Of a stretch of 64,000 nt of DNA, positions 6,541 to 57,062 are shown in pieces. The stretch covers positions 20,754 through 84,753 of the forward strand of contig CAYLUN010000010.1 in the NCBI GenBank assembly GCA_964386865.1, written 5' to 3'. The notes below the pieces were generated by a model. The model searched no databases, was not told where the DNA came from, and worked only from the letters and a program-made list of their open reading frames with translations. A program made the position numbers and the translations under genes. Every line of letters begins with the position of its first letter. The stretch's first letter is position 1. The DNA is from an uncultured Lentisphaeraceae bacterium (GTDB lineage: Bacteria; Verrucomicrobiota; Kiritimatiellia; RFP12; UBA1067).

Positions 6541-6542
6541 CC

Positions 6543-7313
6543 TCACTCGAACGCCACGAGGTTCTTTTCGCGCAGGCTGACGTAGCCGGGGGTCGTGGCG
6601 GTCGGGCGGCCGACGATCAGGTGGTCCACCACGCGGATGCCGAGGATGCGGGCGGCCTCGATCAGGCGGCGGGTGATGTCGATGTCCTCCTTTGACGGCG
6701 TGGGGTCGCCGGAGGGGTGGTTGTGCGCGAGGATCACCGAGGCGGCGCTGTAGCGCACGGCTTTGGAGAAGACCTCGCGCGGGTGCACGGGGCTGGTGTC
6801 GAGCAGGCCGCGCGTGGTCTCGACGGGCTGGCCGATGAGCTTGTTCTTGGTGTCGAGCAGGAGCACCCAGAAGATCTCCTGCTGGAGGGCGCGGGCGAGC
6901 GGGCTGACGAGGCGGTAGACGGCCTCGGGCTCGCGGATGGACGCGGTCTCCTGGCGCGGCGCGTGCTGGTGCTGGGCGGCGCGACGGCCGATCTCCAAGG
7001 CGGCGGCGAGCTCCATGCACTTGACCGGGCCGAGGCCCTTGACCTTCAGCCCGCGCAGCTCCTCGAAGTCGGCCTTGGCGAGGTTCGCGAGGCCTTTGAA
7101 GCGGCGCAGCAGCTCGCGGGCCAGCTCGGTGACGTTCTTGCCGGGCACGCCGGAACGCAGGAGGATGGCGAGCAGGACCTCGTCGGGCACGTTCTCCGCG
7201 CCGCGGCGCTGGAACTCTTCGCGCGGGCGCATCTCCTGCGGCAGCTCTTTGACGCGCAGCGGCGCGTCGGGGTAGACGGCGCGGTCAGGGGGATACGAGG
7301 GGAGTGGGTCCAT
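6543..7313 (-). CDS. radC: RadC-like JAB/MPN domain protein (UPF0758)
   Basis: 256 aa. C-terminal JAMM-like motif 'ILAHNHPSGDPTPSKEDIDIT' and HhH-like N-terminal region. Confidence 0.85.
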   Translation of the reverse strand: MDPLPSYPPDRAVYPDAPLRVKELPQEMRPREEFQRRGAENVPDEVLLAILLRSGVPGKNVTELARELLRRFKGLANLAKADFEELRGLKVKGLGPVKCMELAAALEIGRRAAQHQHAPRQETASIREPEAVYRLVSPLARALQQEIFWVLLLDTKNKLIGQPVETTRGLLDTSPVHPREVFSKAVRYSAASVILAHNHPSGDPTPSKEDIDITRRLIEAARILGIRVVDHLIVGRPTATTPGYVSLREKNLVAFE

Positions 7314-8235: not shown

Positions 8236-8350
8236 GGTTGCAGGTTACACGTTACAGATTACACGTTGCAGGTTACGCGTTACGGGCTGAGGTGTGGGGG
8301 TGCTCGTTCCATTTCTAGAACCCGTGCCCGGCAACCTGTAACCTGTAACA
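8236..8350. promoter_or_regulatory. GTTAC-rich repeat block in the lspA-miaA intergenic region (candidate operator/promoter for miaA)
   Basis: GTTGCAGGTTAC occurs twice (8237, 8265) with GTTACAGATTAC between. Inverted counterpart GCAACCTGTAACCTGTAAC is at ~8318-8336. Confidence 0.3.
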
Positions 8351-17619: not shown

Positions 17620-17695
17620 GCCGGAGGCCGGAGATCAGAGGTCAGAGGTCAGAGATCAGAGGTCAGAGATCAGAGGTCAGAGGTCAGAGCCTCGC
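17620..17695. repeat. heptanucleotide tandem repeat array (GRTCAGA)n, ~9 units
   Basis: GATCAGA GGTCAGA GGTCAGA GATCAGA ... sits immediately 3' of the UAP gene stop. Same heptamer family as 6401-6540 but on the opposite strand. Confidence 0.9.
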
Positions 17696-21795: not shown

Positions 21796-22228
21796 CAAGG
21801 TTCTCCTCTGACGCGCAAGCCCGGAACGGGCTCCGTTCGTTTCCAATGCGGTTGTAGTTTAGCCGGTCGGCCGGGTTCTGGCAAAGGCGAAAATGGAAAC
21901 GCGGAATCGGTTGGTGACGGGGGTGTGCGAAAACGGTGCGTTTCAGAGAAAAGCGTGGCGCAGGACTGGGAGTGCGGGCGCCCCCGCCCGCCGAAGCTGC
22001 GTTTACACGACAGCCCGCCAGCGGTTGTTTCCCGTTTGGCTACGCGTCTGCATGGCTCAGCCTTTCACACGGCGGGCGGGGGCGCCCGCCCTCCCAGTCG
22101 CTCCGCACACGCTGCGCACTGAACTCGCGAGACCCCTGGTACAAGCCGATAATGAAGTTGCGGAATCGACGCACCGGGCGGCTTCTGATAAAATCCGCTC
22201 AATTGTCCAACGGGATGGAGAACCGACT

Positions 22229-28819: not shown

Positions 28820-30249
28820 GGCTGGCCCTCCAGGAAGAGCACCGCGTCGCGGACGAGCGCGTTGAGCGGGGCGGGGATGTAGACGCCCACGAGCAGGACG
28901 AGCAGCATGAGGCCCAGGATCGGCCCGGCGGTCAGGAAGCTGTCGCGGTACGGCGTGTTGCGGGCCTCGAAGGAGGCGCGGCCCTGAACCACCTTGAGGA
29001 CGGTCGCGCCCATGCCGACGAAGACCACCAGCAGCAGGAAGAGGAAGAGCCCGCCGATGGCGATGTGCCCGGCGTCAAACGCGCCGTTGAGGATGGAGAA
29101 CTCGCTGATGAAGGGCCCGAAGGGCGGCGAGCCGGTGATGGCGAGGAAGCCGACGAGGAAGAGGGTGCCGGAGAGCGGCAGGCGCCGCATCGCGCCGCAC
29201 ACCTGGTCGGTGCTCTTGCTGCCGTAGGCGCGGTGGATGTTGCCGGCGGAGAGGAAGAGCACGCCCTTGGTCAGGCCGTTGGTCACCACGTGCAGCAGCG
29301 TGCCGAAGAGCGCGGGTGCTCCGAGCCCGAGGCCCAGCACGAGGATGCCCATGTGCTCGACGCTGGAGTAGGCGAGCATGCGCTTGAAATCGCGCTGGCC
29401 GACCATGAAGAGGCAGGCGACCGCCATCGAAAGCAGGCCCATGAAAAGCAGCAGGCGCGACACGTACGCGCTTTCGCCGGCCGCGATGCAGATGTGGTAG
29501 GTGCGCAGCAGCGCGAGGAAGGCGCAGTTCGTCACGCCGCCCGCGAGCATCGCGCCGACGAGGCCGGGCGCCTCGCCGTAGGCGTCGGGCTTCCACGTGT
29601 GCATGGGGGCGAGGCCCATCTTGGTGCCGTAGCCCACGAGCAGCAGCACGAACGCCGCGTGCAGCCAGGGCTTGGAGAGCTTCGGCGCGTGGGCCAGCAG
29701 GCTCTCAAACGTGAGCGAGGTCTCGAGGCCGGTGTGCAGGGAGGCGTAGGCGAGGAAGAAGGTGCCCAGCAGCGCGAGGGCGATGCCGACCGAGCCGACG
29801 AGCAGGTACTTCCACGTGGCCTCGATGCTGCGCTGCGTATGGTTGAAGAAGATCAGCGGCGCGGTCGCGAGGGTGGTGCCCTCGATGGCCACCCACATGA
29901 GGCCGAGGTGGTGCGCCCACGTCACCAGCGTCATGATGCCCAGAAAGGCCAAGAGGCAGGCGCAGAACACGCGGTTGGGCCGCTCCTCGCGGAAGCGGAG
30001 GTAGCCGACCGCCGAGAACGACACGAAGAAGAACAGCGTGCTGACGACCGGCAGGATCAGCTTGCCGAGCGGGTCGAGCACCAGCCACGCCGCGCTGACG
30101 CACCGGGCGGGGTCGAGCAGGGTGTAGACGGTCAGCGCGAGGTGCGCGACGCCCGCCACGGGCAGCACCCACGGCCGCAGCCGGTTGGAGGGGATGGCCG
30201 CCGCGACGGCGGCCAGCAGCAGCGGCATGAAGATGAGGGCGAAAGCCAT
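28816..30249 (-). CDS. Ehr/Hyf complex antiporter-like membrane subunit (HyfF/NuoN-like)
   Basis: 477 aa polytopic protein with Proton_antipo_M-type conserved core ('MLAYSSVEHMG', 'LFLSAG'). Confidence 0.75.
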   Translation of the reverse strand: MAFALIFMPLLLAAVAAAIPSNRLRPWVLPVAGVAHLALTVYTLLDPARCVSAAWLVLDPLGKLILPVVSTLFFFVSFSAVGYLRFREERPNRVFCACLLAFLGIMTLVTWAHHLGLMWVAIEGTTLATAPLIFFNHTQRSIEATWKYLLVGSVGIALALLGTFFLAYASLHTGLETSLTFESLLAHAPKLSKPWLHAAFVLLLVGYGTKMGLAPMHTWKPDAYGEAPGLVGAMLAGGVTNCAFLALLRTYHICIAAGESAYVSRLLLFMGLLSMAVACLFMVGQRDFKRMLAYSSVEHMGILVLGLGLGAPALFGTLLHVVTNGLTKGVLFLSAGNIHRAYGSKSTDQVCGAMRRLPLSGTLFLVGFLAITGSPPFGPFISEFSILNGAFDAGHIAIGGLFLFLLLVVFVGMGATVLKVVQGRASFEARNTPYRDSFLTAGPILGLMLLVLLVGVYIPAPLNALVRDAVLFLEGQP

Positions 30250-30251
30250 GG

Positions 30252-30893
30252 CTACTCCTTCAGCGAAACCAGCCTGCGCGTGTCCATCGAGGCGAACGCC
30301 TGGTTGATTTGGTTGACGATGATGCAGATCACGAAGATGGCGACGAAGAGGTCGAGCAGCACGCCCATCTCGACGACGAGCGGCATGGCCTCGACCAGAA
30401 GCATGCCGAAGATGAAGATGCCGTTTTCAAGCACGAGGTAGCCCATCACTTGGGTGAGCGCCTTGAAGCGGGTGGTCAGCAGGATGAAGCCGACGAGCAC
30501 GGTGGCGATGGACGTGGGCACGAGCAGCGCGCCGGCGTGCTGCTCGGCGAGCGGCAGCTGGTCGGCGAAAAGGAGCGCGAACACGGTGCCCAGCGCGCCG
30601 AGGATCACCGACGGCTGCAGGCCGATCAGCGGCTCCACCTCGCGCTTGATTTTGACGTCGCGCAGCGCGCGGCTCATCATGGCCGGGATCACGATACCCT
30701 TGAGCGCGATGGTGATGACGACGGTCAGCGCCGTCGTCAGCGTGGAGTGCTCGTGCAGCAGGAGCGGCAGGAGCCCCAGCAGCGCGCCTTGGAGCGCCAC
30801 GGTGCGCACCACGGAGACGATCCGGCTCGTGCCCAGCGCGAAGAGGTTGAGCACCAGCACAAAGACGAGGAGGGTGTTGAGAAGGTTGGTCAT
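30252..30893 (-). CDS. Ehr/Hyf complex small membrane subunit (HyfE-like)
   Basis: 213 aa, ~6 TM helices. Position between the HyfC-like and HyfF-like genes matches hyfE in the hydrogenase-4 operon. Confidence 0.65.
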   Translation of the reverse strand: MTNLLNTLLVFVLVLNLFALGTSRIVSVVRTVALQGALLGLLPLLLHEHSTLTTALTVVITIALKGIVIPAMMSRALRDVKIKREVEPLIGLQPSVILGALGTVFALLFADQLPLAEQHAGALLVPTSIATVLVGFILLTTRFKALTQVMGYLVLENGIFIFGMLLVEAMPLVVEMGVLLDLFVAIFVICIIVNQINQAFASMDTRRLVSLKE

Positions 30894-30897
30894 ACGG

Positions 30898-31806
30898 TCA
30901 CCTGATTAGAAGAATGAAGCCGAAGCCGCAGAAGAGCAGCGCGCCCACCAGCAGGTAGGGCACGTGCCGCATTTGAAGGCGGGCCGTCACCGATTCCACC
31001 ACGCCGATAATGGCCGCCAGCCCCACGAGCTCCATGAGGTAGAGCGGCCAGTCGAGGTAGCTGCGGCCGGTGGCGAAGGGGGCCACCACGTGCAGCAGCA
31101 CGGTGCCGAGCACGAGCAGTTTGACCGACGAGGCGTAGAGGATCAGGCCGAAGAGCGGGCCGCTGTGGTCGAGCACCATGGCCTCGTGAATCATCGTCAG
31201 CTCGAGGTGGGTGGTCGGGTCGTCCACGGGGATGCGGCAGGTCTCGGCCAGCATGACGATGAACAGCCCGATCGAGATCAGCACCAGCGGCGCGGCGACG
31301 TCTGCGGAGAGGGCGAGCGAGGGGCCGTGCAGCATGGGCGCGAGCGAGAGGGAACCCGAGATCTTCGCCAGCACGAGGAAGGCGAAGAAGAGCGCTGGCT
31401 CAGAAAGGCAGGCGAAGGTCACCTCGCGCGCGGAGCCCATGCCCTCGAAGGCCGAGCCCGTGTCCAGCGCGGCCGTGGTCGTGAAGAACCGCGCCAGGCC
31501 GAAGAGGTAGGCGAAGAGGATGAGGTCGCCCGTGAAGGAGATCGGCGCGCCGAACGCGCCAAAGGGGATCAGCAGCCCGGCGAGCAGGACGGCGGCCAGC
31601 GTCACAACCGGGCCGGCGCGGAAGACCCACGTGGTCGTGTCGCTGATCACCATGCCCCGCTGGAGCAGCTTGGCGATGTCGTAGTACGGCTGCAGCAGCG
31701 GCGCGCCGACGCGGCCCGCGAACCACGCTTTGGTCTTGGTGATGACGCCGAGCAGGAGCGGAGGCGCCAGCAGCAGCACGACGATATGGATCAGGGTGTC
31801 GATCAT
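30898..31806 (-). CDS. Ehr/Hyf complex NuoH-like membrane subunit (HyfC/HycD-like)
   Basis: 302 aa. NuoH/HycD-like conserved helices ('LLQPYYDIAKLL', 'LAETCRIPVD'). Confidence 0.8.
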   Translation of the reverse strand: MIDTLIHIVVLLLAPPLLLGVITKTKAWFAGRVGAPLLQPYYDIAKLLQRGMVISDTTTWVFRAGPVVTLAAVLLAGLLIPFGAFGAPISFTGDLILFAYLFGLARFFTTTAALDTGSAFEGMGSAREVTFACLSEPALFFAFLVLAKISGSLSLAPMLHGPSLALSADVAAPLVLISIGLFIVMLAETCRIPVDDPTTHLELTMIHEAMVLDHSGPLFGLILYASSVKLLVLGTVLLHVVAPFATGRSYLDWPLYLMELVGLAAIIGVVESVTARLQMRHVPYLLVGALLFCGFGFILLIR

Positions 31807-31812
31807 GGCTTG

Positions 31813-33813
31813 TTAACTCCCGGCGTTGCCCCACACGAGCAAGACGATCATGACGATCAAGATGTACAGCACGTAGAGATGCGTCTGGCCCTGCTGGAGC
31901 ACGCGCAGCCGCGGCAGGTAGCGCCCGGCGGCTAGGAACAGCGGCGTCGCCAGCCGGTCCAGCACGGCGTCTGGCACGAGGCTCTTGAAGGCCGAGGGCC
32001 GCGGGAAGAGGCCCCGCAGGGCGGTCCGGCAGTCCCGTGGCCACAGCAGGAAGGAGGTGAGGCGGACCAGGGAGTTGCCGAGCGACGAGCCGGTGTACTG
32101 CATGCGGGCGGTGGGCCGCGCGTAGCCGCAGTCCCAGGTCGGCCCCCTCCTGACGGCCTGCTTCCGCAGGGCCGCCCTGAGGAGCGCAAGCACGGCTCCC
32201 GCGAGCGCCAGAAGCGCGAGGTCGGCCACGGTGAAGCACGCCAGCGGGGCGGCTGAGGCGAGGGAGCTCGCGGCGGCGGCCGGCGGGAACCACGACCGGA
32301 CCGCGGCGTCCAGCAGCGGAGTCGCGAGAAAGGGCGCGAGGCCGAGGGCCGCACACCCGCCGGCGAGCAGCGCCATGGGCCCGAGCATGGCTGCGTCCGG
32401 GTCATGCGCCGCACGGGCTGTGGCCTCGGCGCGCGGCGCGCCGAGGAAGACCGCGCCGAGCACCTTCACGAAACAGGCGACCGCCAGCGCGCCGGCCGCG
32501 GCGAGTGCCACGACCGCCAGAGCGGCGGCGGGCAGGCCGGGCGCGCCGCCCTGGCCCAGCGTCTGGAAGAGGCCCAGATAGAGCAGCCACTCGCTGGCAA
32601 AGCCGTTCAGCGGCGGCAGCGCGCAGATGGCGACCGCGCCCACCACAAACAGCGCCATGACGCGCGGGGCGCGCTTGGCGAGGCCGCCCATGCGGTCGAT
32701 CTCGCGCGTGCCCGTCGCGTGGATGACCGCGCCGGCATTGAAGAAAAGCAGCGATTTGAAAAGCGCGTGATTCCAGACGTGCAGCAGCGCGCCGCCCAAG
32801 CCCAGCACGACCCACGCCGGATGTCCGGCGGGGGCGCCGTGGCAGCGGCCCAGGAGCGCCAGCCCGAGGCCCATGGCGATGATGCCGATGTTCTCGATGC
32901 TGCTGTAGGCGAGCAGCCGCTTCAGGTCGCGCTGGCCGATGGCGTACGCGATGCCCGCCACGCTGGAGCACGCGCCTGCCGCGAGCAGCGTGGCGCCCCA
33001 CCAGACCTCGCCGCCCGGCAGCAGGGCGGTCAGGCGGACGAGGCCGTACACGCCCATTTTGAGCATCACGCCGGACATCACGGCCGACACGTGGCTGGGC
33101 GCGTTGGCGTGCGCGCCGGGCAGCCAGACGTGCAGCGGCATGAGGCCCGCCTTGAAGCCGAAACCGACCAGCGCGAGCGCGAAGAGCGCGTTCGCCGTCG
33201 CGGCGGGCAGCCCCAGGTGCGCCTCCAGCGCGAACGAGCCGGTCGCGTGGCGCCAAAGCGCGAAAAGAGCGAAGAGGCAGAGCGTGCCGACGTGCGTGGC
33301 GATCAGGTAGATCCAGCCCGCGCGGCGGACCTCGGGCTTGTCGTCCTCCGCCGTGGCCGCGAAGTAGGCGGCGAGCGCCATGATCTCCCAGGCGAGCAGG
33401 AAGAGCATGCCGTCGCGCGCGATGACGACCAGCGCCATCGCTCCGGCCAGCACGCCGTAGGCAAGGTTCAGGCGGCGGCCGTTGGCCGGGTGCTCGGCCT
33501 GCTTCCAGTAGCCGAGGCCGTAGACGGCGCCGCAGGCTGGCACGACGAACACGGGCAGCAGGAAGACCGCGCTGAGCGTGTCCAGCCCCACGGCGAACCG
33601 GCTCAGCGGCAAGCCCCAGGGCAGGCTCAGCGCGGGGGCTTGCGGCGCGCCGAAGGCCAGCGCGACGGCGGCGAGCCCCAGCAGGCTGCCCGCCAGCAGC
33701 AGCCCGACGGCCAGCCGCTGTCCGGCGGCCGAGCGGGCGGACAGCAGGCAGCCCGGCAGGCCGCTCAGCAGCATGAGGGCGATAGCGAGTAGCAGAATGA
33801 AAAAGATGTTCAT
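31813..33813 (-). CDS. Ehr/Hyf complex antiporter-like subunit, paralog 2 (HyfB/NuoL-like)
   Basis: 666 aa. Proton_antipo_M core ('GLMPLHVWLPGAHANAPSHVSAVMSGVMLK', 'LLAYSSIENIG'). Confidence 0.8.
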   Translation of the reverse strand: MNIFFILLLAIALMLLSGLPGCLLSARSAAGQRLAVGLLLAGSLLGLAAVALAFGAPQAPALSLPWGLPLSRFAVGLDTLSAVFLLPVFVVPACGAVYGLGYWKQAEHPANGRRLNLAYGVLAGAMALVVIARDGMLFLLAWEIMALAAYFAATAEDDKPEVRRAGWIYLIATHVGTLCLFALFALWRHATGSFALEAHLGLPAATANALFALALVGFGFKAGLMPLHVWLPGAHANAPSHVSAVMSGVMLKMGVYGLVRLTALLPGGEVWWGATLLAAGACSSVAGIAYAIGQRDLKRLLAYSSIENIGIIAMGLGLALLGRCHGAPAGHPAWVVLGLGGALLHVWNHALFKSLLFFNAGAVIHATGTREIDRMGGLAKRAPRVMALFVVGAVAICALPPLNGFASEWLLYLGLFQTLGQGGAPGLPAAALAVVALAAAGALAVACFVKVLGAVFLGAPRAEATARAAHDPDAAMLGPMALLAGGCAALGLAPFLATPLLDAAVRSWFPPAAAASSLASAAPLACFTVADLALLALAGAVLALLRAALRKQAVRRGPTWDCGYARPTARMQYTGSSLGNSLVRLTSFLLWPRDCRTALRGLFPRPSAFKSLVPDAVLDRLATPLFLAAGRYLPRLRVLQQGQTHLYVLYILIVMIVLLVWGNAGS

Positions 33814-33834
33814 ACGGAAGTCAGAGGTCGGCGG

Positions 33835-35850
33835 TCAGCGCGCGAACCACTGCGCAAGGAAGGCTTTGAACGGGAACAGGGTGCTGAGTAAGGCGAGCAA
33901 GGTCAAGAGGATGTAGAGCACGTAGTGTTGGGTCAGCCCGCGCTGGAAGCGGTGGAACCAGCCGAACCCGCTCTCGATGCGGGCTCCGGCGGGCAGCAGC
34001 AGGCGGTCGAGCACCGCGTCGTCTACGTGGCTGTGCATGTGGGACGGTTGAGGGAAGAGCCCGGACACGCGCGGCCGCCGGCCGTGCGGGCGGAGCACCC
34101 GGACGAAAAGGAGGACGATTGTCTGGGCGAACGAGGAGGCGGTGTACTGCATCCGCGCGGTGGGGCGCGCGTAGCCGCAGTCCCACGTGGGGCCGGTTCG
34201 CGGCGCGGCGGCCTGCCGCCTCAGCAGGCGGGCGAGCCCGGCGGCGCAGGCGAGGAGGGAGAGTGCCAGCACGCTGATCGCGCCGACCGGCGCGAGCTGG
34301 GCGAGCCGTGCGGGCGCGAGCGAGGTGCCCGTGAGCCAGCAGGCGCACGAGGCGTCGAGCACCGGCGCGACGAGCGCGGGCGCGACCCCGATCAGCACGC
34401 AGCAGGCGGCGAGAGCCGCCATCGGCAGGCGCATCGTGAGGGGCGCCTCGCGGGCGTGCGCCGCCGCCCGGGTGCGCGGCTCGCCGAGGAAAACGGCGCC
34501 GTACACCTTTACGAAGCAGGCGACCGCCAGCGCGCCGACGGCGGCCAGCACGGGCACGCCGATGACGGCGGAGACGGTGCCCGGCCCGGCGGCGGTCGCG
34601 CGGCTCAGCAGGCCGAGGTAGACGAACCACTCGCTGACGAAGCCGTTCAGCGGGGGCAGGCCGCAGATGGCGACCGCACCGATCAGGAAGCAGGCGGCGG
34701 TCCACGGCATGGCCTTAGCGAGGCCGCCCAGGCGGTCGATCTGGCGCGTGCGTGCGGTGTGGACCACCGCGCCGGCGCAGAGGAAGAGCAGGGACTTGAA
34801 GAAGCTGTGGTTCCAGACGTGCAGCAGGCAGCCCGCGAGGCCGAGCGCGACCCAGTCCGCGCGGCCGGCGGAGCGGCCCAGCAGGGCCACGCCGAGGCCC
34901 ATCAGGATGATGCCGATGTTCTCGACGCTGTGGTAGGCGAGCAGGCGCTTGAGGTCGTGCTGGCCGAGGGCGAACACGACGCCCAGCAGGCCGCTGGCCG
35001 CGCCCAGGAGGAGGATCAGCGCGCCCCACGCGGCCGGCGGGTCTGGCAGCAGCGTCAGCCAGCGCACGAGGCCGTAGATGCCGGTCTTGAGCACGACGCC
35101 CGAGAGCATGGCCGAGACGTGGCTCGGTGCGCTGGCGTGGGCGCCGGGAAGCCAGAAGTGCAGCGGCATCATGCCGGCCTTGAGGCCGAAGCCGATCAGC
35201 ACGAGCAGGAACAGGAGGTTCGACAAGCCCGGCCCGAACGCGCCGGGAGCGGCGGGCTCGAGGGCGTACGAGCCTGTCGCGTGACGCCACAGCGCGAAGA
35301 GCGCGAAGAGCGTCAGCGTGCCCACATGCGTGGCGAACAGGTAGATCCAGCCCGCGTCGCGGCTCTCCGCGCGCTGGTCCTCGGTGGAGACTAAGAAGAA
35401 AGCGGAAAGCGCCATGAACTCCCAGCCCAGCAGGAAGGTCAGCGCGTGGCGGCTGACGATCAGCAGCGCCATGCCCGCGACCATCAGGCCCCAGAAGAGG
35501 CGCAGCTTGCGGCCGTTGCCGGGGTGGCGGCGCTGGGGCCAGTAGCCGAGGCCGTAGATGGGGCCGAGCGCGCCCATGAGGAAGACCGGCACGAGGAAGA
35601 ACGCGCTCAGCGGGTCGAGCCCGACCAGGCCGTTGCCGGCAGCCGGCCACGGGAAGAAGGAGGCGGGCGCCGCGCTGCCGCGGGTGCCGCACAGTGCTCC
35701 GGCGGCGCCGGCGAGCCCCACGAGGCCGGAGGCGGCCATCAGGATCACCGCGAGGCGCTCGCCCCGGCCTGACGCGCGCGGCAAGGCCGCGCCCGGAAAC
35801 CCGCTGGCGGCCGCAAGGGCGATGGCGAAGATGATCAGGTCGAGGAACAC
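33835..35850 (-). CDS. Ehr/Hyf complex antiporter-like subunit, paralog 1 (HyfB/NuoL-like)
   Basis: 671 aa. Same family as 31813..33813 ('MMPLHFWLPGAHASAPSHVSAMLSGVVLK', 'LLAYHSVENIG'); tandem duplication. Confidence 0.8.
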   Translation of the reverse strand: MFLDLIIFAIALAAASGFPGAALPRASGRGERLAVILMAASGLVGLAGAAGALCGTRGSAAPASFFPWPAAGNGLVGLDPLSAFFLVPVFLMGALGPIYGLGYWPQRRHPGNGRKLRLFWGLMVAGMALLIVSRHALTFLLGWEFMALSAFFLVSTEDQRAESRDAGWIYLFATHVGTLTLFALFALWRHATGSYALEPAAPGAFGPGLSNLLFLLVLIGFGLKAGMMPLHFWLPGAHASAPSHVSAMLSGVVLKTGIYGLVRWLTLLPDPPAAWGALILLLGAASGLLGVVFALGQHDLKRLLAYHSVENIGIILMGLGVALLGRSAGRADWVALGLAGCLLHVWNHSFFKSLLFLCAGAVVHTARTRQIDRLGGLAKAMPWTAACFLIGAVAICGLPPLNGFVSEWFVYLGLLSRATAAGPGTVSAVIGVPVLAAVGALAVACFVKVYGAVFLGEPRTRAAAHAREAPLTMRLPMAALAACCVLIGVAPALVAPVLDASCACWLTGTSLAPARLAQLAPVGAISVLALSLLACAAGLARLLRRQAAAPRTGPTWDCGYARPTARMQYTASSFAQTIVLLFVRVLRPHGRRPRVSGLFPQPSHMHSHVDDAVLDRLLLPAGARIESGFGWFHRFQRGLTQHYVLYILLTLLALLSTLFPFKAFLAQWFAR

Positions 35851-45480: not shown

Positions 45481-46491
45481 ATGCCAGGCCCACGCAAAAT
45501 CGTTTTTACCGACGGGCGCGAGACCCATCGCGCCGACGACTGCCTGCCGCTGACGCGGGCGGTCGCAGCCGGCGAGATGGAGCTGCACGCGCTGGCCCGG
45601 CACAGCTATCCGGGCGAGGCGCTGAAGGCCGGCGAGGCGCCGGGCGTCTGCTCGGTCGGGTACTGGCGGACGGTCGGCGAGCAGCGGCACGGCTTGGCTC
45701 CGCACCGCAACGAGGGCGTCGAGCTGACGATGTCGCTGTCGGGCGAGACGCCGGTGACGGTGGAGGGCCAGCCGTATGTGCTTCGCCCCGGCGAGCTGAT
45801 GGTGACGCGGCCGTGGCAGGTCCACTCGGTCGGCAGCCCCGTCTTCGCAGCCGGCAAGGTGGGGTGGCTCATCCTCGACGTCGGCGTGCGCCACCCGCAT
45901 CAGGCGTGGCGCTGGCCGGCGTGGGTCGTGCTGACGCAGGAGGAGGTCGATTTCCTGACGCGCGCGCTGCGCCAGAATGAGGATGCGATCCGCCCGGTCC
46001 CCGACTCGCTGGCGGAGTCGTTCGGCCGCCTGGTGCGGATCGCCGGGCGTCCGGACGCGCCGCACCGCGGCTCGCGGGTCGTGGTGGCGGTGAACGCGCT
46101 GCTGCTGGAGCTGTTCGACCTGTTCGAGGCCCGCCCGGTCCGCTACAGCCCGGCGCTGACCGACGCCTCGCGCAGCGTGCGGCTGTTCTTGGCGGAGCTG
46201 CGCGCGCGGCTGGCCGAGCCGTGGAGCGTGCGCAGCATGGCCGAGGCGTGCGGGCTGGGCGCGACACACTTCACGCGGCACGTCCAGCTGGTGACCGGCG
46301 AGTCGCCCGCGCACCACTTGCTCGGGCTGCGGCTTGAGCAGGCCGCGCGGCGGCTGCGCCAGGAGCCGGGCGTGCCGGTCGCCGAGATCGCCCGGCACGT
46401 CGGCTTCTCGCACGCCAACTACTTCGCCCGCGTCTTTGTGCAGCGCTACGGCTGCACGCCGGCGGCGTGGCGGAACAAGAAGTGCCCATGA
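45481..46491 (+). CDS. AraC-family transcriptional regulator (cupin sensor + HTH)
   Basis: C-terminal AraC HTH 'MAEACGLGATHFTRHVQLVTGESPAHH...IARHVGFSHANYFARVF'. Confidence 0.85.
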   Translation: MPGPRKIVFTDGRETHRADDCLPLTRAVAAGEMELHALARHSYPGEALKAGEAPGVCSVGYWRTVGEQRHGLAPHRNEGVELTMSLSGETPVTVEGQPYVLRPGELMVTRPWQVHSVGSPVFAAGKVGWLILDVGVRHPHQAWRWPAWVVLTQEEVDFLTRALRQNEDAIRPVPDSLAESFGRLVRIAGRPDAPHRGSRVVVAVNALLLELFDLFEARPVRYSPALTDASRSVRLFLAELRARLAEPWSVRSMAEACGLGATHFTRHVQLVTGESPAHHLLGLRLEQAARRLRQEPGVPVAEIARHVGFSHANYFARVFVQRYGCTPAAWRNKKCP

Positions 46492-46540
46492 GCCCCGCGT
46501 CGCCGGGAAGCGGAACGGCCGGCCGGCAAACTCCATTTTC

Positions 46541-46661
46541 GATTCCGCTGAAAAAGTCGGCGGGCGGCGGTGAATCGAACGAAAATGCCCTCACGGGCAC
46601 ACAAACGGGTGCGAAGCGTTCGTAGTGGCGCCGTCAGGCGCTTAAAGCCGACTTCTTCAGC
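46541..46661. mobile_element. MITE-like nonautonomous element, copy 1 (~121 bp) with terminal inverted repeats, flanked by 13-bp direct repeat AAACTCCATTTTC
   Basis: Left end GATTCCGCTGAAAAAGTCGGCG. Right end GCCGACTTCTTCAGC (truncated TIR). Direct repeats at 46528-46540 and 46662-46674. ~90% identical to copy at 52988-53113. Confidence 0.55.
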
Positions 46662-46690
46662 AAACTCCATTTTCAAGGGCTGACCCCTGC

Positions 46691-48946
46691 CTAGGGCTCG
46701 GTGGTCAGGGCCCGCGGGCGGGCGGCGAGGCGCTTGCCGTCCGAGAAGCGGACCGCTAGGGGCGCGTCGCCGTAGTTGTAGACGGCGTAGGTCTTGGCAC
46801 CGCCCTTCTTGAAGACATTGTAGAACGGGTAGTCGGCGGTCACGGAAGCCTCGTTGATGCCGAGGCGGTCGAGGGTGTGGATCCAGTGGTACATGAAGGC
46901 GTGCGTGTTGCCGCCCTCCAGCTTGCAGGCGGGGTTCGCGTCGATGTAGGCCGCGGCTGGCGCAGGATCGGCCAGGGCGCCGAACATCATGACGAGGTCG
47001 CCCCAGCCGCTGTTGAAGTTGGATCCCGCCTTGCGTGTCGCGACGAGGCGGCCGTGGTTCCGCTTCACGTACGCGGGAAAGCGGCCTAGGTAGAACGAGG
47101 CGGGCGTAAAGGGCAGCCAGTTGATGCCGTGGATGCAGTCGCTGTCGCCCGAGAACCAGGTGCCGAAGGCGCCCTTGCCGCCCCAGACCATGCCCAAGGC
47201 CACTTGGGGGTAGTCCTTGGGGTAGTTCGTGCCGGACACGTCGAACCAGTACTCCTCGACGGCCGTCCGCTCGGTGTTAAACAGAAAGAGGCCCGCGTCG
47301 CGGACCGTCATGTCGCACGTCGCCTGACCCCACATCGCCATGCCATACCACGCGTTCATCGACTCGCTCGAGGACTCTTGGTTGTTGCCGTCCGCGAAGT
47401 TGGCGTCGCCCGAGGCCCACGAGTGGCCGGCGTACTTGTCGAAGCAGCGGAGGTAGGGGAAAAGCGGGTCCGCGCGGTCCGTTGAGGCGATGTCGCGGAT
47501 CAGCAGCTTGACCATGGGGCCCCAGTTCTCGGCCCAGGCCGGATCCACGCGCGCGACCTCGGCCGCGGCGCGGATGAAGTAGCCGTAATGGAAGTGGTGG
47601 TCGTTGAGCGGCGTGTCGCTGCCGTAGGAGGGGCGGCTGCCGACCAGCGAGCCCCAGCGTGCATTGTAGTAAAACACCGGCTGCTCTTTGCCGGGGGCGG
47701 CCGTGAACCAGGCCTCCAGCCGCCGCTTGAGTTCGGCAACCAAGCGCTGCTGCAGGTCGGCTGCGCCGATGACCTCGGCTATGCCGCTCAGCGTCGCGAG
47801 GCGCCCGAGGTGCTTGCCCTCCCAGTAGGTGTCGCCAAATGCGGCCGGCGGCTTGTCGGCTTCGGCCTGCAGGTAGCCGGCCATTCGCGCGCGATCCGGC
47901 ACCCCTTGGTGCGGAAACATCGGCAGCACGCCTTGGAGCGGGGTCGAAGTGACGAACTGCTCGCCCGAGCCGACCTTCATCGTGCCACGCACGGAGCCGT
48001 AGGTCATGGGGGTGAGCGGGGTCGTCGCATACTTCCACTGGTGCGGGTAGAGCGCGAACAGGGTGCCCGCTGTCTGCCCCTCGTAGGGCTTGACGGTGAA
48101 GCGATAGGTCGTTTGCACAGCCGCGTCGTCGACGGCGTAGTCGGCGCGCGTGTCGGTCACGTGGTTGTAGGCGTAGGCTTTGAAGCGCGCGAGCGTTTCC
48201 GGCTGGGCGTCCGGCAGCAGCGCGACTGAAAAGTAGGCCTTGCCGTTCGCGTGGTTGGTGATCGCCAGGCCGCCGAGGCCGCACCAGGTCGAGCCGCTCG
48301 GGCCGAAAAGCGCGTAGTGGTTTCCGCCGGCCGTCACGCCGAGCACCGGCTCGCTCGCGGAGCCCGCGAAGAGCCGAGGCGCCTGAGCGAAGCTCACCAC
48401 CGGACAGCCGCCTTCGTACAGCGCGAAAACGAAGGGGGAACCGTGGCCGATGCTCACGCGCATCTGGGCCGCCCCGGACGAGAAGGCGGCCGTCACGAAC
48501 CACTCCGAGCAGCCGTCGCAAGCGGCCTGCGGGAAGGTCGAGGCGGCTGAATGGCCCAGGCGCAGGTCGCCCTCCTTGCTCAGGCCTGCGCCGAAGATGC
48601 CCGCCGCGCTGCCGTGCACCTTGGCGCCCGGATAGCCGATCTTAAAGCCGGTCTCGACGCACTGGCCCACCAGCGGGTGCGCGAAGAGCGGCTGCGAGCA
48701 CTTCTGCCAAAGCAGCGAACTCCACCACTGCCCCGTGAGCACGGGGCCTTTGTACTGGGCCGTGCGAGAGATCGCGTCCGGAAGAGGCTTGCACGGCTTG
48801 GGGCGCGCGGTCAGGTAGCTTCCCGCACCGGCCGCGACGACGCCCGTTTGCTCGTTTCCGCGCGCGCCGCTCGCGGCTGCGAGCGCGGCTAGGGCCAGCA
48901 AGCCGAGCCGAAGCGGCCGGCAGGCGGATCGTCTAGTCGCTGTCAT
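46691..48946 (-). CDS. glycoside hydrolase family 81-like endo-beta-1,3-glucanase, secreted
   Basis: 751 aa with signal peptide. 'NDHHFHYGY' and 'ESSSESMNAWY' blocks resemble GH81 conserved catalytic regions. Confidence 0.65.
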   Translation of the reverse strand: MTATRRSACRPLRLGLLALAALAAASGARGNEQTGVVAAGAGSYLTARPKPCKPLPDAISRTAQYKGPVLTGQWWSSLLWQKCSQPLFAHPLVGQCVETGFKIGYPGAKVHGSAAGIFGAGLSKEGDLRLGHSAASTFPQAACDGCSEWFVTAAFSSGAAQMRVSIGHGSPFVFALYEGGCPVVSFAQAPRLFAGSASEPVLGVTAGGNHYALFGPSGSTWCGLGGLAITNHANGKAYFSVALLPDAQPETLARFKAYAYNHVTDTRADYAVDDAAVQTTYRFTVKPYEGQTAGTLFALYPHQWKYATTPLTPMTYGSVRGTMKVGSGEQFVTSTPLQGVLPMFPHQGVPDRARMAGYLQAEADKPPAAFGDTYWEGKHLGRLATLSGIAEVIGAADLQQRLVAELKRRLEAWFTAAPGKEQPVFYYNARWGSLVGSRPSYGSDTPLNDHHFHYGYFIRAAAEVARVDPAWAENWGPMVKLLIRDIASTDRADPLFPYLRCFDKYAGHSWASGDANFADGNNQESSSESMNAWYGMAMWGQATCDMTVRDAGLFLFNTERTAVEEYWFDVSGTNYPKDYPQVALGMVWGGKGAFGTWFSGDSDCIHGINWLPFTPASFYLGRFPAYVKRNHGRLVATRKAGSNFNSGWGDLVMMFGALADPAPAAAYIDANPACKLEGGNTHAFMYHWIHTLDRLGINEASVTADYPFYNVFKKGGAKTYAVYNYGDAPLAVRFSDGKRLAARPRALTTEP

Positions 48947-51644: not shown

Positions 51645-52574
51645 TCAGACGTTGTCCGGAAACAGATGATCGAGAAAGCGTTGCGCCACGGTCTCGCCCT
51701 CGGGCGGGGAGATGGCCATGTCGGGGGAGACCTCAATGACGGTCAGGCGGCGCGTGGCGCGGTCGACCAGGAAGTCGACGCCCACGAGCGGCAGGGCGAG
51801 TTCGCGGGCGATGCGCTGCGCGATCTTCAGGGCGCGGGCGGGCACGGAGTCGGTGACGACGTCGCAGGTTCCGCCGGTGTGGTAGTTGTTGGTGAGACGC
51901 ACGCGCACGCGTTCGCCGGGAGCGGGCACGTCGTCCGGCGAGCGGCCAAGCTCCGCGAGGTTGCGGCGCGTCTCGGCGTTCCACGGGATCACGTTGCTGG
52001 GATCCTCCTTGCGGCGGGTCGCGTTGCGGCGGGCGATGAGTTGGCGCAGCGTGTGCGCGCCGTCGCCGGTGACGGCGGCCGGGCTGCGGCGGATGGCGGC
52101 GGCGAGTTCGCCGCCCACGAGGATCACGCGCAGATCCTCGCCGGGCGCGGTCTCCTCGAGGACCACGTCGGTCTCGTAGCGCCGCGCGAAGCGCACGGCG
52201 GCATGCAGCTCGGCGGGCGTGCGAACGCCCATGGAGATGCCGCGCCCACCCCACTGCATGCAGGGCTTGACCACGACGGGGGCGTGGTCGCGCAGGAAGG
52301 CGAGCGCGTCTCCGGCGTGCGCGTCATCATAGGCGAGTTGCGCGGGCACGGGAAGGCGTCGGCGGGCGAGCCACGCGTGGCAGGCGCGCTTGTTGTTAAC
52401 CAGGTGGTAGGTCGCGGCGCCGACGAGGTCGGTGAGCGCGTTGAAGCAGCGCACGGTCTTGCCGTCGCGGCTGAGGTCGAAGATCGGCAGGTTCGGGTCG
52501 GGGTTGACCAGCTTGACGCGGATGCCGCGGCGCCGCGCCTCGTCGGTGAGGGTCGTGGTATAGGGGGTGAGCAT
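51645..52574 (-). CDS. ATP-grasp domain protein (RimK / cyanophycin-synthetase-like ligase)
   Basis: 309 aa. 'VVVKP..WGGRGISMG', 'DLRVILVGGEL', 'GVDFLVD' ATP-grasp pattern. Confidence 0.6.
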   Translation of the reverse strand: MLTPYTTTLTDEARRRGIRVKLVNPDPNLPIFDLSRDGKTVRCFNALTDLVGAATYHLVNNKRACHAWLARRRLPVPAQLAYDDAHAGDALAFLRDHAPVVVKPCMQWGGRGISMGVRTPAELHAAVRFARRYETDVVLEETAPGEDLRVILVGGELAAAIRRSPAAVTGDGAHTLRQLIARRNATRRKEDPSNVIPWNAETRRNLAELGRSPDDVPAPGERVRVRLTNNYHTGGTCDVVTDSVPARALKIAQRIARELALPLVGVDFLVDRATRRLTVIEVSPDMAISPPEGETVAQRFLDHLFPDNV

Positions 52575-52987
52575 AGTTGACAGTTGAGGTTAGCGCTGGG
52601 CGTTCAGCGCGTGTCGGAAAGGATGGCAGATCGAGACGGGGCAGGGCAAGGGGAAAGTGGGAGAGGAAAAGTGAGAGAAAGGGTACGAGGAACGATCTGC
52701 GCCAAACGCCGATCGCGGAACACGCGCATTCGTGAAGGCCTGGCGATCATCGGGTCTGGACGGGCGTCGGCCCGCCCGCGCCACGGCGGCGGCGTGCTTC
52801 TCCGTTGACGGCACTGGTTCGTGCGTGTACCATCGGCACATGGGTAGGAGTTTGGGGCTTGGAAATTGGGCTTTACGGGAGGCCGTTGCTCATTTATCGG
52901 CCTAAGCTATGAAGAGTCAACCGTCCGCGCGATGCGGGCGCGGCCGTGCGAAGGGCCTAGGCCTCGTGGCAAACGGTCTATGATGTC

Positions 52988-53113
52988 GATTCCGCTGAAA
53001 AAGTCGGCGAGCGGCGGCGAATCGAACGGGATGCCCTCACGGGCACACAAACGGGTGCGAAGCGTTCGTAGTGGCGCCGTCAGACGCTTCAAGCCGACTT
53101 ATTCAGCGGAATC
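52988..53113. mobile_element. MITE-like nonautonomous element, copy 2 (~126 bp), intact 21-bp TIRs, 7-bp TSD TGATGTC
   Basis: GATTCCGCTGAAAAAGTCGGCG ... GCCGACTTATTCAGCGGAATC. TGATGTC at 52981-52987 and 53114-53120. Lies in the 5' region of the GH2 gene. Confidence 0.6.
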
Positions 53114-53150
53114 TGATGTCGGCTTCCGTGTCGCGATTGAGGAGTGCGTG

Positions 53151-54944
53151 ATGAGGTGGAGGGGACTGAAAGCTGAAGTGTGGGCCCGGAGCGTTCAGAA
53201 ATGGGCGCTGCTTGTCTGTGCGTGTTCGCTCGTCACTGCACAGGTGCACGCCGCCGCCAAATATCCGCAGCATCCCAAGCGGCAGGCGCAGCGGCTCGAC
53301 GGCTCGTGGCGGTTCGTCTGGCTCGGCGACGCTGACTGGGCTGGCTTGAGACCTGAGGCGATAACCTGCGACAGGATCGCCGCCGTTCCGGGCGTCTTTG
53401 ACACCGCGCTGGACAACTACGGAAAACGCGGAACGGGGGTTTATCGGCGGACAGTTGCTGCATCTCCTGGCGCCCTGCGCCTGAAGATCGGCGGCCTCGG
53501 CCTCTGCGCCAAGGTCTGGTGGGACGGCACGCTCGTCGGAGAGGTCCGGCTGCCCTATGCGTCGGTCGATCTGGATTTTGACAACCCGACAGCGGGCGAG
53601 CACACGCTGACGATTGCCGTGGACAACCGCTTCTCGGCTGGCACCGCGCCGCTCTTCAAGGCCAGCTATGATTTCTATGGCTACGGAGGCATCTACCGGA
53701 GCCTCATGCTCGAAGCGCTTCCGGCGCAGCGGATCGAACGTGTTCAGGTTACCACGCTTGATCCGGTGGCGGGGCGCGTCCGCATCCGCCTCAGCACGGC
53801 GGGCGTCGCGGACGGCGCCGCATCCGTTGCGGTTGGCTTTGACTCGCAGCCCGGTCAGCCTCACGACGTGACGGTCTCCGGCGGGGCCGCCGAGTGGGAG
53901 TGCGCCGTGCCGGCCGCGAAGCCCTGGTCCCCGGACGCGCCGCACTTGCACGCAGTGTGCGTGACACTTGGAGCCGATCAGGTGATTGACCGGTTTGGCC
54001 TTCGCAGGATCGAAACCGAAGGCCGGCAGATTCTCCTGAACGGCCAGCCGATCCGGCTCAAAGGAGTCAACCGCCACGAGTCACACCCCGAGTTCGGCCC
54101 CGTGCAGAACACGCACCTGATGCTGGATGACATCCGCCTCGTCCGCACGCTCGGCGGCAACTTTATCCGCTGCGTCCATTACCAGCACGACCCCGAGTTT
54201 TACGAGCTTTGCGATGAGACCGGCACGCTGGTCTGGGCCGAGAGCTTGGGGTGGGGTCTTGGCGAGAAAGAGCTGCTTCCGCTGGAGCCTCTGCTCGTGG
54301 AGGAGACGCGCATCCTCGGCCGCATCGTGGCCAACCATCCCTCGGTGATCATCGCCGGGTTCCTGAACGAGTGCGCGTCGGACAAGGCGAGCTGCCTGCC
54401 CCTCTATCAGAAGCTGGCCGGCACGCTGCGTGAGACCGCTCCTAACACCTTGGTCTCCTACGCCTCCAACCGGCTCAAGAAGGACGTGTGCCTCAGCGTG
54501 TGCGATGTGGTGTCCCTTAACTACTATCCCGGGTGGATTTCCCCTGTCTCGTGGGATCAGCCTTCGAGCGCGCAGGTGCCCGGATACGTGGACGACCTTG
54601 CCAAATGGTTTGACGCGCCGGAGAACAAGGAGGTCTTCGGCAAGCCCCTCATCACGTCGGAAACCGGCTGCTGCGGCGTCTACGGCGTGAGGGATCGCGC
54701 GCTGGCTCAGTGGTCCGAAGAGTATCAGGCCGATTATCTCGTCACCTCCCTTCGCGCCTCGATGAATAACCCGCGCTTCTGCGGCGTCGTCATCTGGCAG
54801 ATGTTCGACACGCGCTCGTTTGTCAACGCCGGCGAGGTGCGCGGCAAATTCAGGGGTTTCAACAACGCCGGGCTGCTGGACGAGTACCGCCGCCCGAAGC
54901 TCGCCTTCGACGAGGTGCAGAAGGTATTCAAGGAGCTGAAGTGA
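53151..54944 (+). CDS. glycoside hydrolase family 2 (beta-glucuronidase/beta-galactosidase-like), secreted
   Basis: 597 aa. Signal peptide. 'GVNRHE', 'GFLNECASD' (acid/base E) and 'ITSETGCCG' (nucleophile E) GH2 TIM-barrel motifs. GAGGAG RBS. Confidence 0.75.
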   Translation: MRWRGLKAEVWARSVQKWALLVCACSLVTAQVHAAAKYPQHPKRQAQRLDGSWRFVWLGDADWAGLRPEAITCDRIAAVPGVFDTALDNYGKRGTGVYRRTVAASPGALRLKIGGLGLCAKVWWDGTLVGEVRLPYASVDLDFDNPTAGEHTLTIAVDNRFSAGTAPLFKASYDFYGYGGIYRSLMLEALPAQRIERVQVTTLDPVAGRVRIRLSTAGVADGAASVAVGFDSQPGQPHDVTVSGGAAEWECAVPAAKPWSPDAPHLHAVCVTLGADQVIDRFGLRRIETEGRQILLNGQPIRLKGVNRHESHPEFGPVQNTHLMLDDIRLVRTLGGNFIRCVHYQHDPEFYELCDETGTLVWAESLGWGLGEKELLPLEPLLVEETRILGRIVANHPSVIIAGFLNECASDKASCLPLYQKLAGTLRETAPNTLVSYASNRLKKDVCLSVCDVVSLNYYPGWISPVSWDQPSSAQVPGYVDDLAKWFDAPENKEVFGKPLITSETGCCGVYGVRDRALAQWSEEYQADYLVTSLRASMNNPRFCGVVIWQMFDTRSFVNAGEVRGKFRGFNNAGLLDEYRRPKLAFDEVQKVFKELK

Positions 54945-55088
54945 GAAGCCTCATCCGCGTCGACGTGAGGCGTCGCGCGCGTCACGATGCGCCCGTATCT
55001 TTCGGTGGCGCGGGAGGGCCGCCTGAAGGCGGTACACCTGCGCTGGACGGGTTGGTGTCCCGGCTCAGTTCTTAGAGGAGGTGTGAAG

Positions 55089-57062
55089 ATGTGTAGGCGA
55101 GAGTCCGGTGTGCGGCGGATGTCGTGTGCGGCGGCGCTGATGGTGCTTGGCGCGGCGGCGCAAGGTGCGACGGCGGCGGAAAAGCCGAACGTGGTTTTCT
55201 TCCTTGTGGACGACATGGGGTGGATGGACTGCGGCGCGTACGGCTCGCAGTACTACGAGACGCCGAACATGGACCGGCTCGCGAAGCAGGGCATGCGCTT
55301 CACGCAGGCCTACGCGCAGCCGCTCTGCTCGCCCACGCGCGCGTCGATTCTCACGGGCCAATACGCGGCGCGCCACCGCATCACCAGCGCCTCGGGCCAC
55401 CAGCCGCCGCAGGCGTCGGACGACGAGCTGATGCCCAAGGTCGCCCGGCCGAACGCGCCGCTGCTGATGCCGGAGAGCAAGAACTTCCTCGAGCCGTCGC
55501 AGATCACGCTGGCTGAGGCGCTGCGCGACGCCGGCTACCGCACGGCGCACATCGGCAAGTGGCACCTCGGGCTGACTCAACCCTATTGGCCGGAAAAGCA
55601 GGGCTTCGAGGTCGCCTTCCACGCCCAGCCGAGCCCCGGCCCGGCCAGCTACTTTTCGCCGTACGGCGTCGTTCCAGAGGGAGCGCCGAGCGCCAAACAG
55701 CACGTCGGCACGATCACCGACGGGCCGGCAGGCGAGTACATCACGGACCGGCTGACCGACGAGGCGGTCACGTTCATCGAGGGCAGCAAGAGCAAGCCCT
55801 TCTTCTTGAATCTCTGGCATCACGGCGTCCACGGGCCATGGGGGCACAAGGAGGCCTACACGGCGCAGTTCGCGAAGAAGGGCGACCCGCGCGGCGTGCA
55901 GGGCAACCCGCTCATGGCCTCGATGCTCAAGAGCGTCGACGAGAGCCTCGGCCGCATCATGGCCAAGCTCGATGAACTCAAGCTGGCGGACAACACGGTC
56001 ATCGTCTTCTACTCCGACAACGGCGGTAACGTGCACAGCAACACGCCCGACGACGAGAAGGGCAAGCGGCGCAGGCCGGACGATACGCGGCTGCTGGACT
56101 GGCGCAAGTGGGCTGGTGACCGTCCGCCGACCTGCAACGCGCCGCTGCGCGACGGCAAGGGCCGGCTCTACGAGGGCGGCATCCGCGTGCCGCTCGTCGT
56201 CCGCTGGCCCGGCAAGGTTGCGGCGGGCGCGACAAACGACGCGGTCGTGGGCTGCGTCGACCTGTATCCCACGCTGCTCGACCTCGCCGGCGTGCCGGTT
56301 CCGGCGGCGCAGAAAGTGGACGGCGTGTCGTTCGCGCCGGTGCTGCGCGGCACGGGCGCGCTGACGCGTGAGGCGTACTTCACCTGGTTCCCGCACCTCG
56401 TGCCGGGCGTCGCGGTGCGCAAGGGCGACTGGAAGCTCATCCGGCGCTTCGAAGAGCGGCCGTCGGAGTACGAGGGCCTGTTCGAGCTGTTCAACCTGAA
56501 GGACGACCTCGGCGAAACGAAGAACCTGGCTGCAGCGATGCCGGACAAAGTGAAGGAGCTGGACGCGCTGATCGACGCCTTCGTGAAGGAGACGGGCGCG
56601 CTCTATCCGAAACCGAACCCGGCGTACAAGCCGCAGGCTGCGGTGACCGCGCCTGCAGCCGACCCGGCGCAGGGGCTGGTGCCCAAATTCTGCAAGGCCA
56701 CGGTGGCGGGCGGCGCGCTGCGCGTCGAGGCGGACGGGCGTAACCCGTTCCTTGGCACAGCGCAGGTGAAGGCACGTGGGCCGCTCACGCTCGCGCTGCG
56801 CGCCCGCTGCGCGGCGGGCGGGCCGGGCAAAGTGCAGTGGGTCACCGGGGACAACGCCGATTTCACGGTGCCCGGCCAGACGGCCGAGTTCGCGCTGAAA
56901 CCTGGCGCAGAGTGGCAGGATGTCACGATGGCGCTGCCGATCCAAGGTGCGCCGCGCATCGTGCGGCTCTACCTGCCCGCCGAAAAGGGGCCGGTCGAGG
57001 TCGCCTGGATCCGCTACCTGGACGCGTCCGGCAAGCCGGTGCGCGTGTGGACATTCCGTTGA
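55089..57062 (+). CDS. sulfatase (formylglycine-dependent, Cys-type) with C-terminal extension
   Basis: Signal peptide. 'VVFFLVDDMGW' metal-binding block and 'CSPTRASILTG' C-x-P-x-R FGly signature. 'GKWH' motif. Confidence 0.85.
   Translation: MCRRESGVRRMSCAAALMVLGAAAQGATAAEKPNVVFFLVDDMGWMDCGAYGSQYYETPNMDRLAKQGMRFTQAYAQPLCSPTRASILTGQYAARHRITSASGHQPPQASDDELMPKVARPNAPLLMPESKNFLEPSQITLAEALRDAGYRTAHIGKWHLGLTQPYWPEKQGFEVAFHAQPSPGPASYFSPYGVVPEGAPSAKQHVGTITDGPAGEYITDRLTDEAVTFIEGSKSKPFFLNLWHHGVHGPWGHKEAYTAQFAKKGDPRGVQGNPLMASMLKSVDESLGRIMAKLDELKLADNTVIVFYSDNGGNVHSNTPDDEKGKRRRPDDTRLLDWRKWAGDRPPTCNAPLRDGKGRLYEGGIRVPLVVRWPGKVAAGATNDAVVGCVDLYPTLLDLAGVPVPAAQKVDGVSFAPVLRGTGALTREAYFTWFPHLVPGVAVRKGDWKLIRRFEERPSEYEGLFELFNLKDDLGETKNLAAAMPDKVKELDALIDAFVKETGALYPKPNPAYKPQAAVTAPAADPAQGLVPKFCKATVAGGALRVEADGRNPFLGTAQVKARGPLTLALRARCAAGGPGKVQWVTGDNADFTVPGQTAEFALKPGAEWQDVTMALPIQGAPRIVRLYLPAEKGPVEVAWIRYLDASGKPVRVWTFR

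Follow-up and report, generated by a model that had tools for sequence, protein, structure and literature searches.

A sequence of about 126 bp occurs twice in the carbohydrate locus of the window, the 64-kb stretch of DNA analysed in this study, and it raised the question whether the two copies represent a mobile element or a conserved structure acting at the RNA level. An initial annotation of this DNA had favoured a non-autonomous transposable element over an RNA leader. This reading was supported by our analysis, as the ends of the sequence are common to transposase-bearing elements, 7-bp duplications recur at its borders and its copies are dispersed. Very probably, the two repeats represent a non-coding MITE, the ends of which match those of a 2.1-kb IS1182-family insertion sequence (IS) of Lentisphaerae/Verrucomicrobia relatives.

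Copy 1 (46541-46667, plus strand, 127 bp) and copy 2 (52988-53113, plus strand, 126 bp) are spaced by 6.4 kb. The arrangement described initially, two copies in the same orientation with the first located between araC and the 3' end of GH81 and the second in the 5' region of GH2, was found again in full. According to Pfam, the neighbours of copy 1 are a gene encoding an AraC-family regulator (45481-46491, plus strand), which terminates 50 nt before the copy, and a GH81 glycoside hydrolase gene (46691-48946, minus strand), which converges on it. Copy 2 is situated between two divergent genes, of which the one at the far side is an ATP-grasp gene (51645-52574, minus strand). The other is a GH2 glycoside hydrolase gene (53151-54944, plus strand), the ATG of which is positioned 37 nt past the end of the copy and is preceded by a GAGGAG ribosome-binding site (53140-53145); a sulfatase gene (54987-57062, plus strand) is located further downstream.

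The intact ends of copy 2 (52988-53009 and 53092-53113) form the arms GATTCCGCTGAAAAAGTCGGCG and, as reverse complement, GATTCCGCTGAATAAGTCGGCT, which match at 20 of 22 positions. The inverted ends noted before (~21 bp) were recovered, with arms of 22 nt. In copy 1, the left end (46541-46562) is also intact, while the right end is recognisable to position 46661 (GCCGACTTCTTCAGC) and is followed by AAACTC (46662-46667) in place of the terminal GGAATC. Over 46541-46661, both copies are identical at 113 of 121 positions (93.4%), a value slightly higher than the ~90% given earlier for this similarity, and the similarity ends precisely where the inverted repeats end. The copy pair was independently recovered by a repeat finder (as D11). 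When the 22-nt end pattern was searched with up to three mismatches, only three ends in the window matched, all of them belonging to copies 1 and 2, and none were expected according to 100 shuffles. The G+C content of the 64-kb window is 65-73%. The sole ORF over copy 2 results from extending the GH2 frame too far upstream, and the MITE carries no transposase gene.

The window also harbours repeats of other kinds. Another element of the hairpin type (136 bp) is located at 21964-22099; its 30-nt arms are 97% complementary (GACTGGGAGTGCGGGCGCCCCCGCCCGCCG...), and its sequence is unrelated to the MITE. Tandem heptamer arrays (CCTCTGA/CCTCCGA/CCTCCGC; complement GAGGTCA/GAGATCA) are found at 6388-6562 and 17622-17689, inverted and 11 kb apart. 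In addition, three paralogous segments with 73-84% identity occur within 29280-35560, spaced by ~3.5 kb (first to second) and ~2.0 kb (second to third), and probably form a tandem gene family.

The exact end pattern GATTCCGCTGAANAAGTCGGC was scanned against a genome collection and a metagenome collection. The scan yielded 16 genome loci, mostly from Lentisphaeraceae, Verrucomicrobiota and Opitutia MAGs, and 35 metagenome loci. The matches in L003, L006 and L016 (Gammaproteobacteria, Galbitalea and Gemmataceae MAGs) were set aside as chance, as they were single matches in coding regions with the second end absent. When the ends were paired by script, the elements fell into two size classes, a small one (126-131 bp) and a long one with about 15 members (2098-2140 bp). 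Window-type small copies, 126-130 bp long and with 88-97% identity, were found 11 times on nine contigs, twice in the window, twice in L033, and once each in L002, L009, L014, L022, L052, L029 and L053. As L029 and L053 represent one site, the nine copies outside the window correspond to eight distinct sites. Little or no variation was seen at the ends of 10 small copies, and the small elements L007 and L012 possess the common ends together with a different interior. The count of further copies that the initial annotation had called for, obtained here by this database scan with the end pattern, therefore identified the window-type element as multi-copy and dispersed. Five window-type copies occurred within one metagenome sample. 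The MAG CAZXVN01, with end-pattern matches on five contigs (L001, L002, L004, L012 and L014), contains the full-length element L004 together with the small copies L002 and L014 (both window-type) and L012. The neighbours of the other window-type copies were unrelated and included converging histidine kinase genes (L022), an acetyl-xylan esterase (L053) and a Y1-transposase fragment (L002).

Several loci displayed more complex arrangements. At the two L033 copies (2382-2510 and 8126-8254), and likewise between L025 and L038, one flank is common over at least 25 nt and the other side is different, and this one-sided sharing suggests recombination between copies. Family elements were found end to end, 7 nt apart, at L027:2226-2275 and L050:933-1110; in L050, a 149-bp small element adjoins a full-length one. 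At L001:7134-7852, an element end with identical terminus adjoins a RelB antitoxin/YafQ toxin pair and has ~90 nt that are similar to the right-hand portion of the window-type MITE. No second end of the L001 element was present within 8 kb.

The long elements are clear candidates for the autonomous partner. About 15 elements of ~2.1 kb from Lentisphaeraceae and Verrucomicrobiota MAGs and metagenomes are bounded by the ends GATTCCGCTGAAAAAGTC..., and the terminal 18 nt are identical among the long elements and the MITE although the transposases diverge by up to 40%. An intact ORF of 525-565 aa, such as L025:833-2443, occurs at a constant position in 14 of the 15 long elements and is frameshifted in L004. 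Among NCBIfam models, it is matched best by the IS1182 family profile NF033551 (E = 4e-66 and 1e-69, profile positions 38-487/488), with scores of 224-236 bits that remain under the curated NCBIfam cut-off of 270. The Pfam domains of the transposase are DUF772, DDE_Tnp_1 and DDE_Tnp_1_6, and the closest plasmid-borne relatives, at 31-36% identity, are annotated as IS1182-family transposases. By these matches, the full-length partner is probably a divergent IS1182-family insertion sequence. In every full-length element, a second ORF of ~77 aa is encoded divergently from the transposase (L004:5845-6078, minus strand; at the equivalent position in L010, L024, L025, L027, L030-L032, L036, L038, L040-L043 and L050). 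This ORF is 66-83% identical among copies and has a sub-threshold Pfam match to a MazE/AbrB-type fold (E = 0.002); the putative AbrB/MazE-like protein may be a regulator or target selector. The search for an autonomous relative proposed initially thus led to ~2.1-kb elements with the ends of the MITE, 7-bp duplications and an IS1182-family transposase.

The relationship between both size classes is restricted to the ends. The sampled long elements match the MITE only over its leftmost ~30 nt and its rightmost ~21 nt. As the interior in between matches none of them, the MITE is not a simple deletion derivative of the sampled long elements. To judge from the sequence, the MITE is linked to the IS1182-family IS through its ends and cannot be taken as proven to derive from a sampled copy by deletion. 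No transposase or Y1 gene was detected by tblastn in the 64-kb window, which leaves a source copy in the window's genome unproven; such a copy would be present now, or would have been so formerly.

Perfect 7-bp duplications occur at eight of 12 small elements and at three full-length elements, with copy 1 counted such that its last 6 nt represent a degenerate end. At copy 2, the direct repeat TGATGTC (52981-52987 and 53114-53120) directly abuts both intact ends, as had been annotated. If copy 1 is taken as 46541-46667, it is flanked by CATTTTC (46534-46540 and 46668-46674). The other small elements with duplications are L012 (CGTAATC), L014 (GGCATTC), L029/L053 (GACAATG), L033b (TCTTATT) and L052 (CAAAGTA), and the long ones are L004 (AATATTC), L010/L040 (GATAAAT) and L024 (GAATAT, where the contig ends). 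Partial duplications with 5-6 of 7 positions matching were found at L025, L007, L022 and L030. A duplication was absent at several copies (L009, L033a and many full-length elements).

For copy 1, the initial annotation had reported a shortened right terminal repeat and a flanking 13-bp direct repeat. Both are present, the latter as AAACTCCATTTTC at 46528-46540 and 46662-46674, but a duplication of 13 bp was rejected in favour of 7 bp plus 6 nt. The AAACTC at the right end is identical to the six bases that precede the left CATTTTC, which forms the last 7 nt of the repeat copy at 46528-46540, and this identity creates the 13-bp repeat. The duplications of the other copies are 7 bp long, and in L009 an intact GGAATC stands beside a copy 1-like flank, CATTTTC...GGGCTGACCC (CATTTTCAAGGGCTGACCC); both argue for the reading of 7 bp plus 6 nt. 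Compared with copy 1, the genes surrounding L009 are unrelated at the DNA level and the interior is oppositely oriented. The terminal GGAATC, exactly 6 nt of one end, is missing in two independent small copies (window 46662-46667 and L002:499-504). As a guess, this twofold loss might be due to end cleavage that went wrong, or to a short tract of conversion between both copies of the duplication.

Eight contigs from other assemblies extend to one of the copies and agree with the window at 99.9-100% identity; seven of them stopped inside the copy (L018 and L019 at 46568; L057-L059 at 46624; L055 and L056 at 53054). Copy 1 is spanned by L017, and copy 2 is entirely spanned by L064, a contig of the same strain with 100% identity to the window that was obtained in a later look-up. 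Short-read assemblies of the window's organism therefore fragment at the MITE copies. Empty sites, by which the initial annotation had intended the duplications to be confirmed, were not recovered. Look-ups with the exact AraC, GH2, GH81 and cluster member proteins returned only contigs of the window's own strain, which always contain the element or break within it, and a homologue search with GH2 retrieved relatives that are 74-80% identical at the protein level and have a different synteny without the element. The empty sites were reconstructed as ...GCAAACTC CATTTTC AAGGGCTGACCCC... for copy 1 and ...ACGGTCTA TGATGTC GGCTTCCGTG... for copy 2.

The insertion sites were compared using 68 unique flanks of element ends (L001-L054 and the window), each read towards the element. 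The flanks display a preference for T at positions -11 (44/68), -9 (51/68) and -2 (54/68), for A at -6 (54/68), and for A or T at -4 (63/68). The resulting target consensus is AT-rich, dyad-symmetric and centred on the 7-bp duplication. In addition, 23 of the 68 flanks contain the motif RGRGTCR exactly at -20 to -14, 13 nt outside the end, compared to at most one flank at other tested offsets and a background frequency of 4.7e-4 per position. The local consensus is kept in flanks with and without the motif, which is often followed by CGTC. As the duplication lies between motif and element end, the motif belongs to the target. At copy 1, it is located on the minus strand (46675-46687) as GGGGTCA (46687-46681) followed by GCCCTT, 13 nt from the element end and starting 5 nt past the GH81 stop codon. 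The flank GGGTCAGCCCTTGAAAATG of copy 1 also adjoins the independent copy in L009; copy 2 lacks the motif. GGGGTCA did not behave as a high-copy repeat, as there was no enrichment in the window and 40 of the 54 fetched loci did not contain it.

In L023 (5560-6690), inverted GGGGTCACGTCTCAAGATTC... repeats enclose a 328-aa gene that encodes a Y1_Tnp domain (E = 3e-12) and matches DnaA_C weakly; tandem ACAATTGGGGTCA units occur on one side of it. In L002, the motif is found beside a fragment homologous to this gene and directly adjoining the window-type small copy. The motif occurs at either side of the long elements L032, L042 and L043, whose flanks are inverted and not direct. It is conceivable, if rather doubtful, that the IS1182-family partner does not choose AT-rich sites at random but reads RGRGTCR, a Y1/RAYT-type terminal repeat, and cuts at a constant 13 nt from it, and that the AbrB/MazE-like protein could be the reader.

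Other explanations of the repeats were weighed against the MITE. A conserved cis-regulatory RNA (leader/riboswitch-like) or a small RNA gene of carbohydrate loci, in which the hairpin would be the functional structure, would be in line with the position of copy 2 just upstream of GH2, with a sigma-70-like site (52805-52833) ahead of the copy. As a single strand, copy 2 is predicted to fold into one long hairpin of -65.4 kcal/mol, and folding is far better than in shuffled controls for the plus strand (z = -7.4) as well as for the minus strand (z = -5.5). Such a strong hairpin is also to be expected because the element has inverted ends. No Rfam family matched either copy: at the gathering score, nothing but two tRNAs was identified in the whole window, and with the limit relaxed to E <= 1, a snoRNA family was matched once in the region of copy 2, by chance (E = 0.12). 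Among ten copies, none of the 34 predicted pairs showed compensatory changes, in a test that is weak due to low divergence, and most changes break pairs. Copy 1 is situated between the 3' ends of two genes, and the neighbours at other copies are unrelated. The GH2 homologues of 74-80% identity are preceded by a different gene and by spacers of 22-134 nt that are unlike the element. Moreover, 7-bp duplications and the ends of transposase-bearing elements are unexpected for an RNA leader. A fixed position beside orthologous genes together with covarying pairs, named initially as the outcome that would point to RNA, was not seen, as the contexts were unrelated, none of the 34 pairs covaried and the closest GH2 homologues lacked the element. 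The RNA explanation is therefore largely refuted and highly improbable.

It is equally hard to believe that the sequence belongs to the palindromic repeats of the REP/REPIN type and owes its movement to a Y1 (RAYT/IS200-like) tyrosine transposase instead of a DDE transposase. The MITE is an imperfect palindrome, the Y1_Tnp gene in the related contig L023 lies between inverted GGGGTCACGTCTC... repeats, and the window-type copy in L002 adjoins such a repeat and the homologous gene fragment. However, Y1 transposases make no target duplication, whereas perfect 7-bp duplications recur here, and the ends are those of the DDE-transposase elements and not the GGGGTCA repeats. The Y1_Tnp gene is bracketed by the GGGGTCA motif and not by the 126-bp element, and the motif represents target DNA from which the element end is separated by the duplication. 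A local segmental duplication or chance palindrome in the carbohydrate locus that is not mobile could be suspected as the 64-kb window contains no more than two copies, which are equally oriented and separated by 6.4 kb. This possibility is extremely remote and was refuted by copies found elsewhere, nine more in other contigs and genomes; in addition, the similarity stops exactly at the ends of the inverted repeats, and no end matches were expected by chance.

With the MITE as the preferred reading, effects on the adjacent genes are conceivable. A promoter scan identified no sigma-70-like sites within copy 1 or copy 2, and the only such site in the copy 2 spacer is that at 52805-52833, upstream of the copy. 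If this promoter were used, the GH2 leader would carry the copy 2 hairpin. A terminator scan revealed one modest terminator-like hairpin within copy 1 on the minus strand (46600-46585), which would concern transcripts from the GH81 side. Such promoter-like and terminator-like matches are no evidence of function. The copy 2 hairpin (-65 kcal/mol, 37 nt before the GH2 start) and copy 1, located between converging genes, are plausible as putative expression modifiers. The strong hairpin might affect neighbouring transcripts, and by inference only, either copy may influence the expression of GH2, GH81 or araC. In one public JGI gene call, GH2 starts at 52980 and is translated through copy 2 (52980-53150, corresponding to L064:300-470), resulting in 654 instead of 597 aa. 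The 57 extra residues are probably an annotation artefact, by which the MITE adds spurious sequence to this GH2 call.

Many features of the element agree with bacterial MITEs, such as Correia/NEMIS of Neisseria, ERIC, RUP and the IS-derived MITEs in ISfinder, namely a non-coding sequence of 100-300 bp, terminal inverted repeats in common with an IS, short target duplications, an intergenic multi-copy distribution and a strong hairpin if transcribed. The element differs from these by its sequence family, which is new with regard to the searched literature, its Lentisphaerae/Verrucomicrobiota hosts and its IS1182-family partner. Correia elements affect transcripts; for the MITE in the window, such an effect would be putative.

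The transposase architecture and the best profile match of the partner agree with the IS1182 family, as do the palindromic target preference and the inverted repeats flanking several copies. IS1272 of staphylococci, which belongs to this family, targets inverted-repeat structures without duplication, and some family members are reported to target palindromes (PMC5678879). The palindromic target and the inverted flanks found here fit this published IS1182/IS1272 targeting; in contrast to IS1272, a duplication of 7 bp is regular. The partner also differs from the IS1182 family by its identity to annotated members of only 31-36%, its score under the NCBIfam cut-off and the extra ~77-aa AbrB/MazE-like ORF in every full-length copy. 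Its length of ~2.1 kb exceeds that typical of the family.

Insertion at a fixed position from a short repeated motif, and the association of this motif with a Y1/RAYT-like gene, are shared with REP-targeting IS (IS1397, ISKpn1, ISPpu9/ISPpu10), which belong to other IS families. ISPpu9 inserts into REP sequences (PMC8450116). Unlike in these systems, RGRGTCR is not abundant in the fetched DNA and is present at about one third of the insertions only.

Taken together, the following mechanism can be proposed. The non-coding MITE would keep terminal inverted repeats of ~18-22 nt that are recognised by a divergent IS1182-family DDE transposase, and would be mobilised by it. The partner IS of ~2.1 kb would encode this transposase of ~535 aa and, on the opposite strand, the small AbrB/MazE-like gene. 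Supplied in trans by a full-length element at another site of the genome, or by one formerly present, the transposase would cut the MITE ends, and the MITE would be inserted into an AT-rich, roughly palindromic target through a 7-bp staggered cut, the repair of which would produce the 7-bp direct repeats. By this route, copy 1 would have entered the gap between converging genes beside a GGGGTCA-type motif, and copy 2 the upstream region of the GH2 gene.

The kind of element is ordinary. The string of the MITE ends was absent from the searched literature and the family of the MITE/IS pair was not found there, and with regard to this literature the family is newly described for Lentisphaerae/Verrucomicrobiota, phyla with very few characterised mobile elements. 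The target consensus and the conserved accessory gene provide a lead for target choice in the heterogeneous IS1182 family. If the partner indeed reads RGRGTCR, this would constitute protein-directed, site-selective DDE transposition, with a miniature derivative that has identical targeting.
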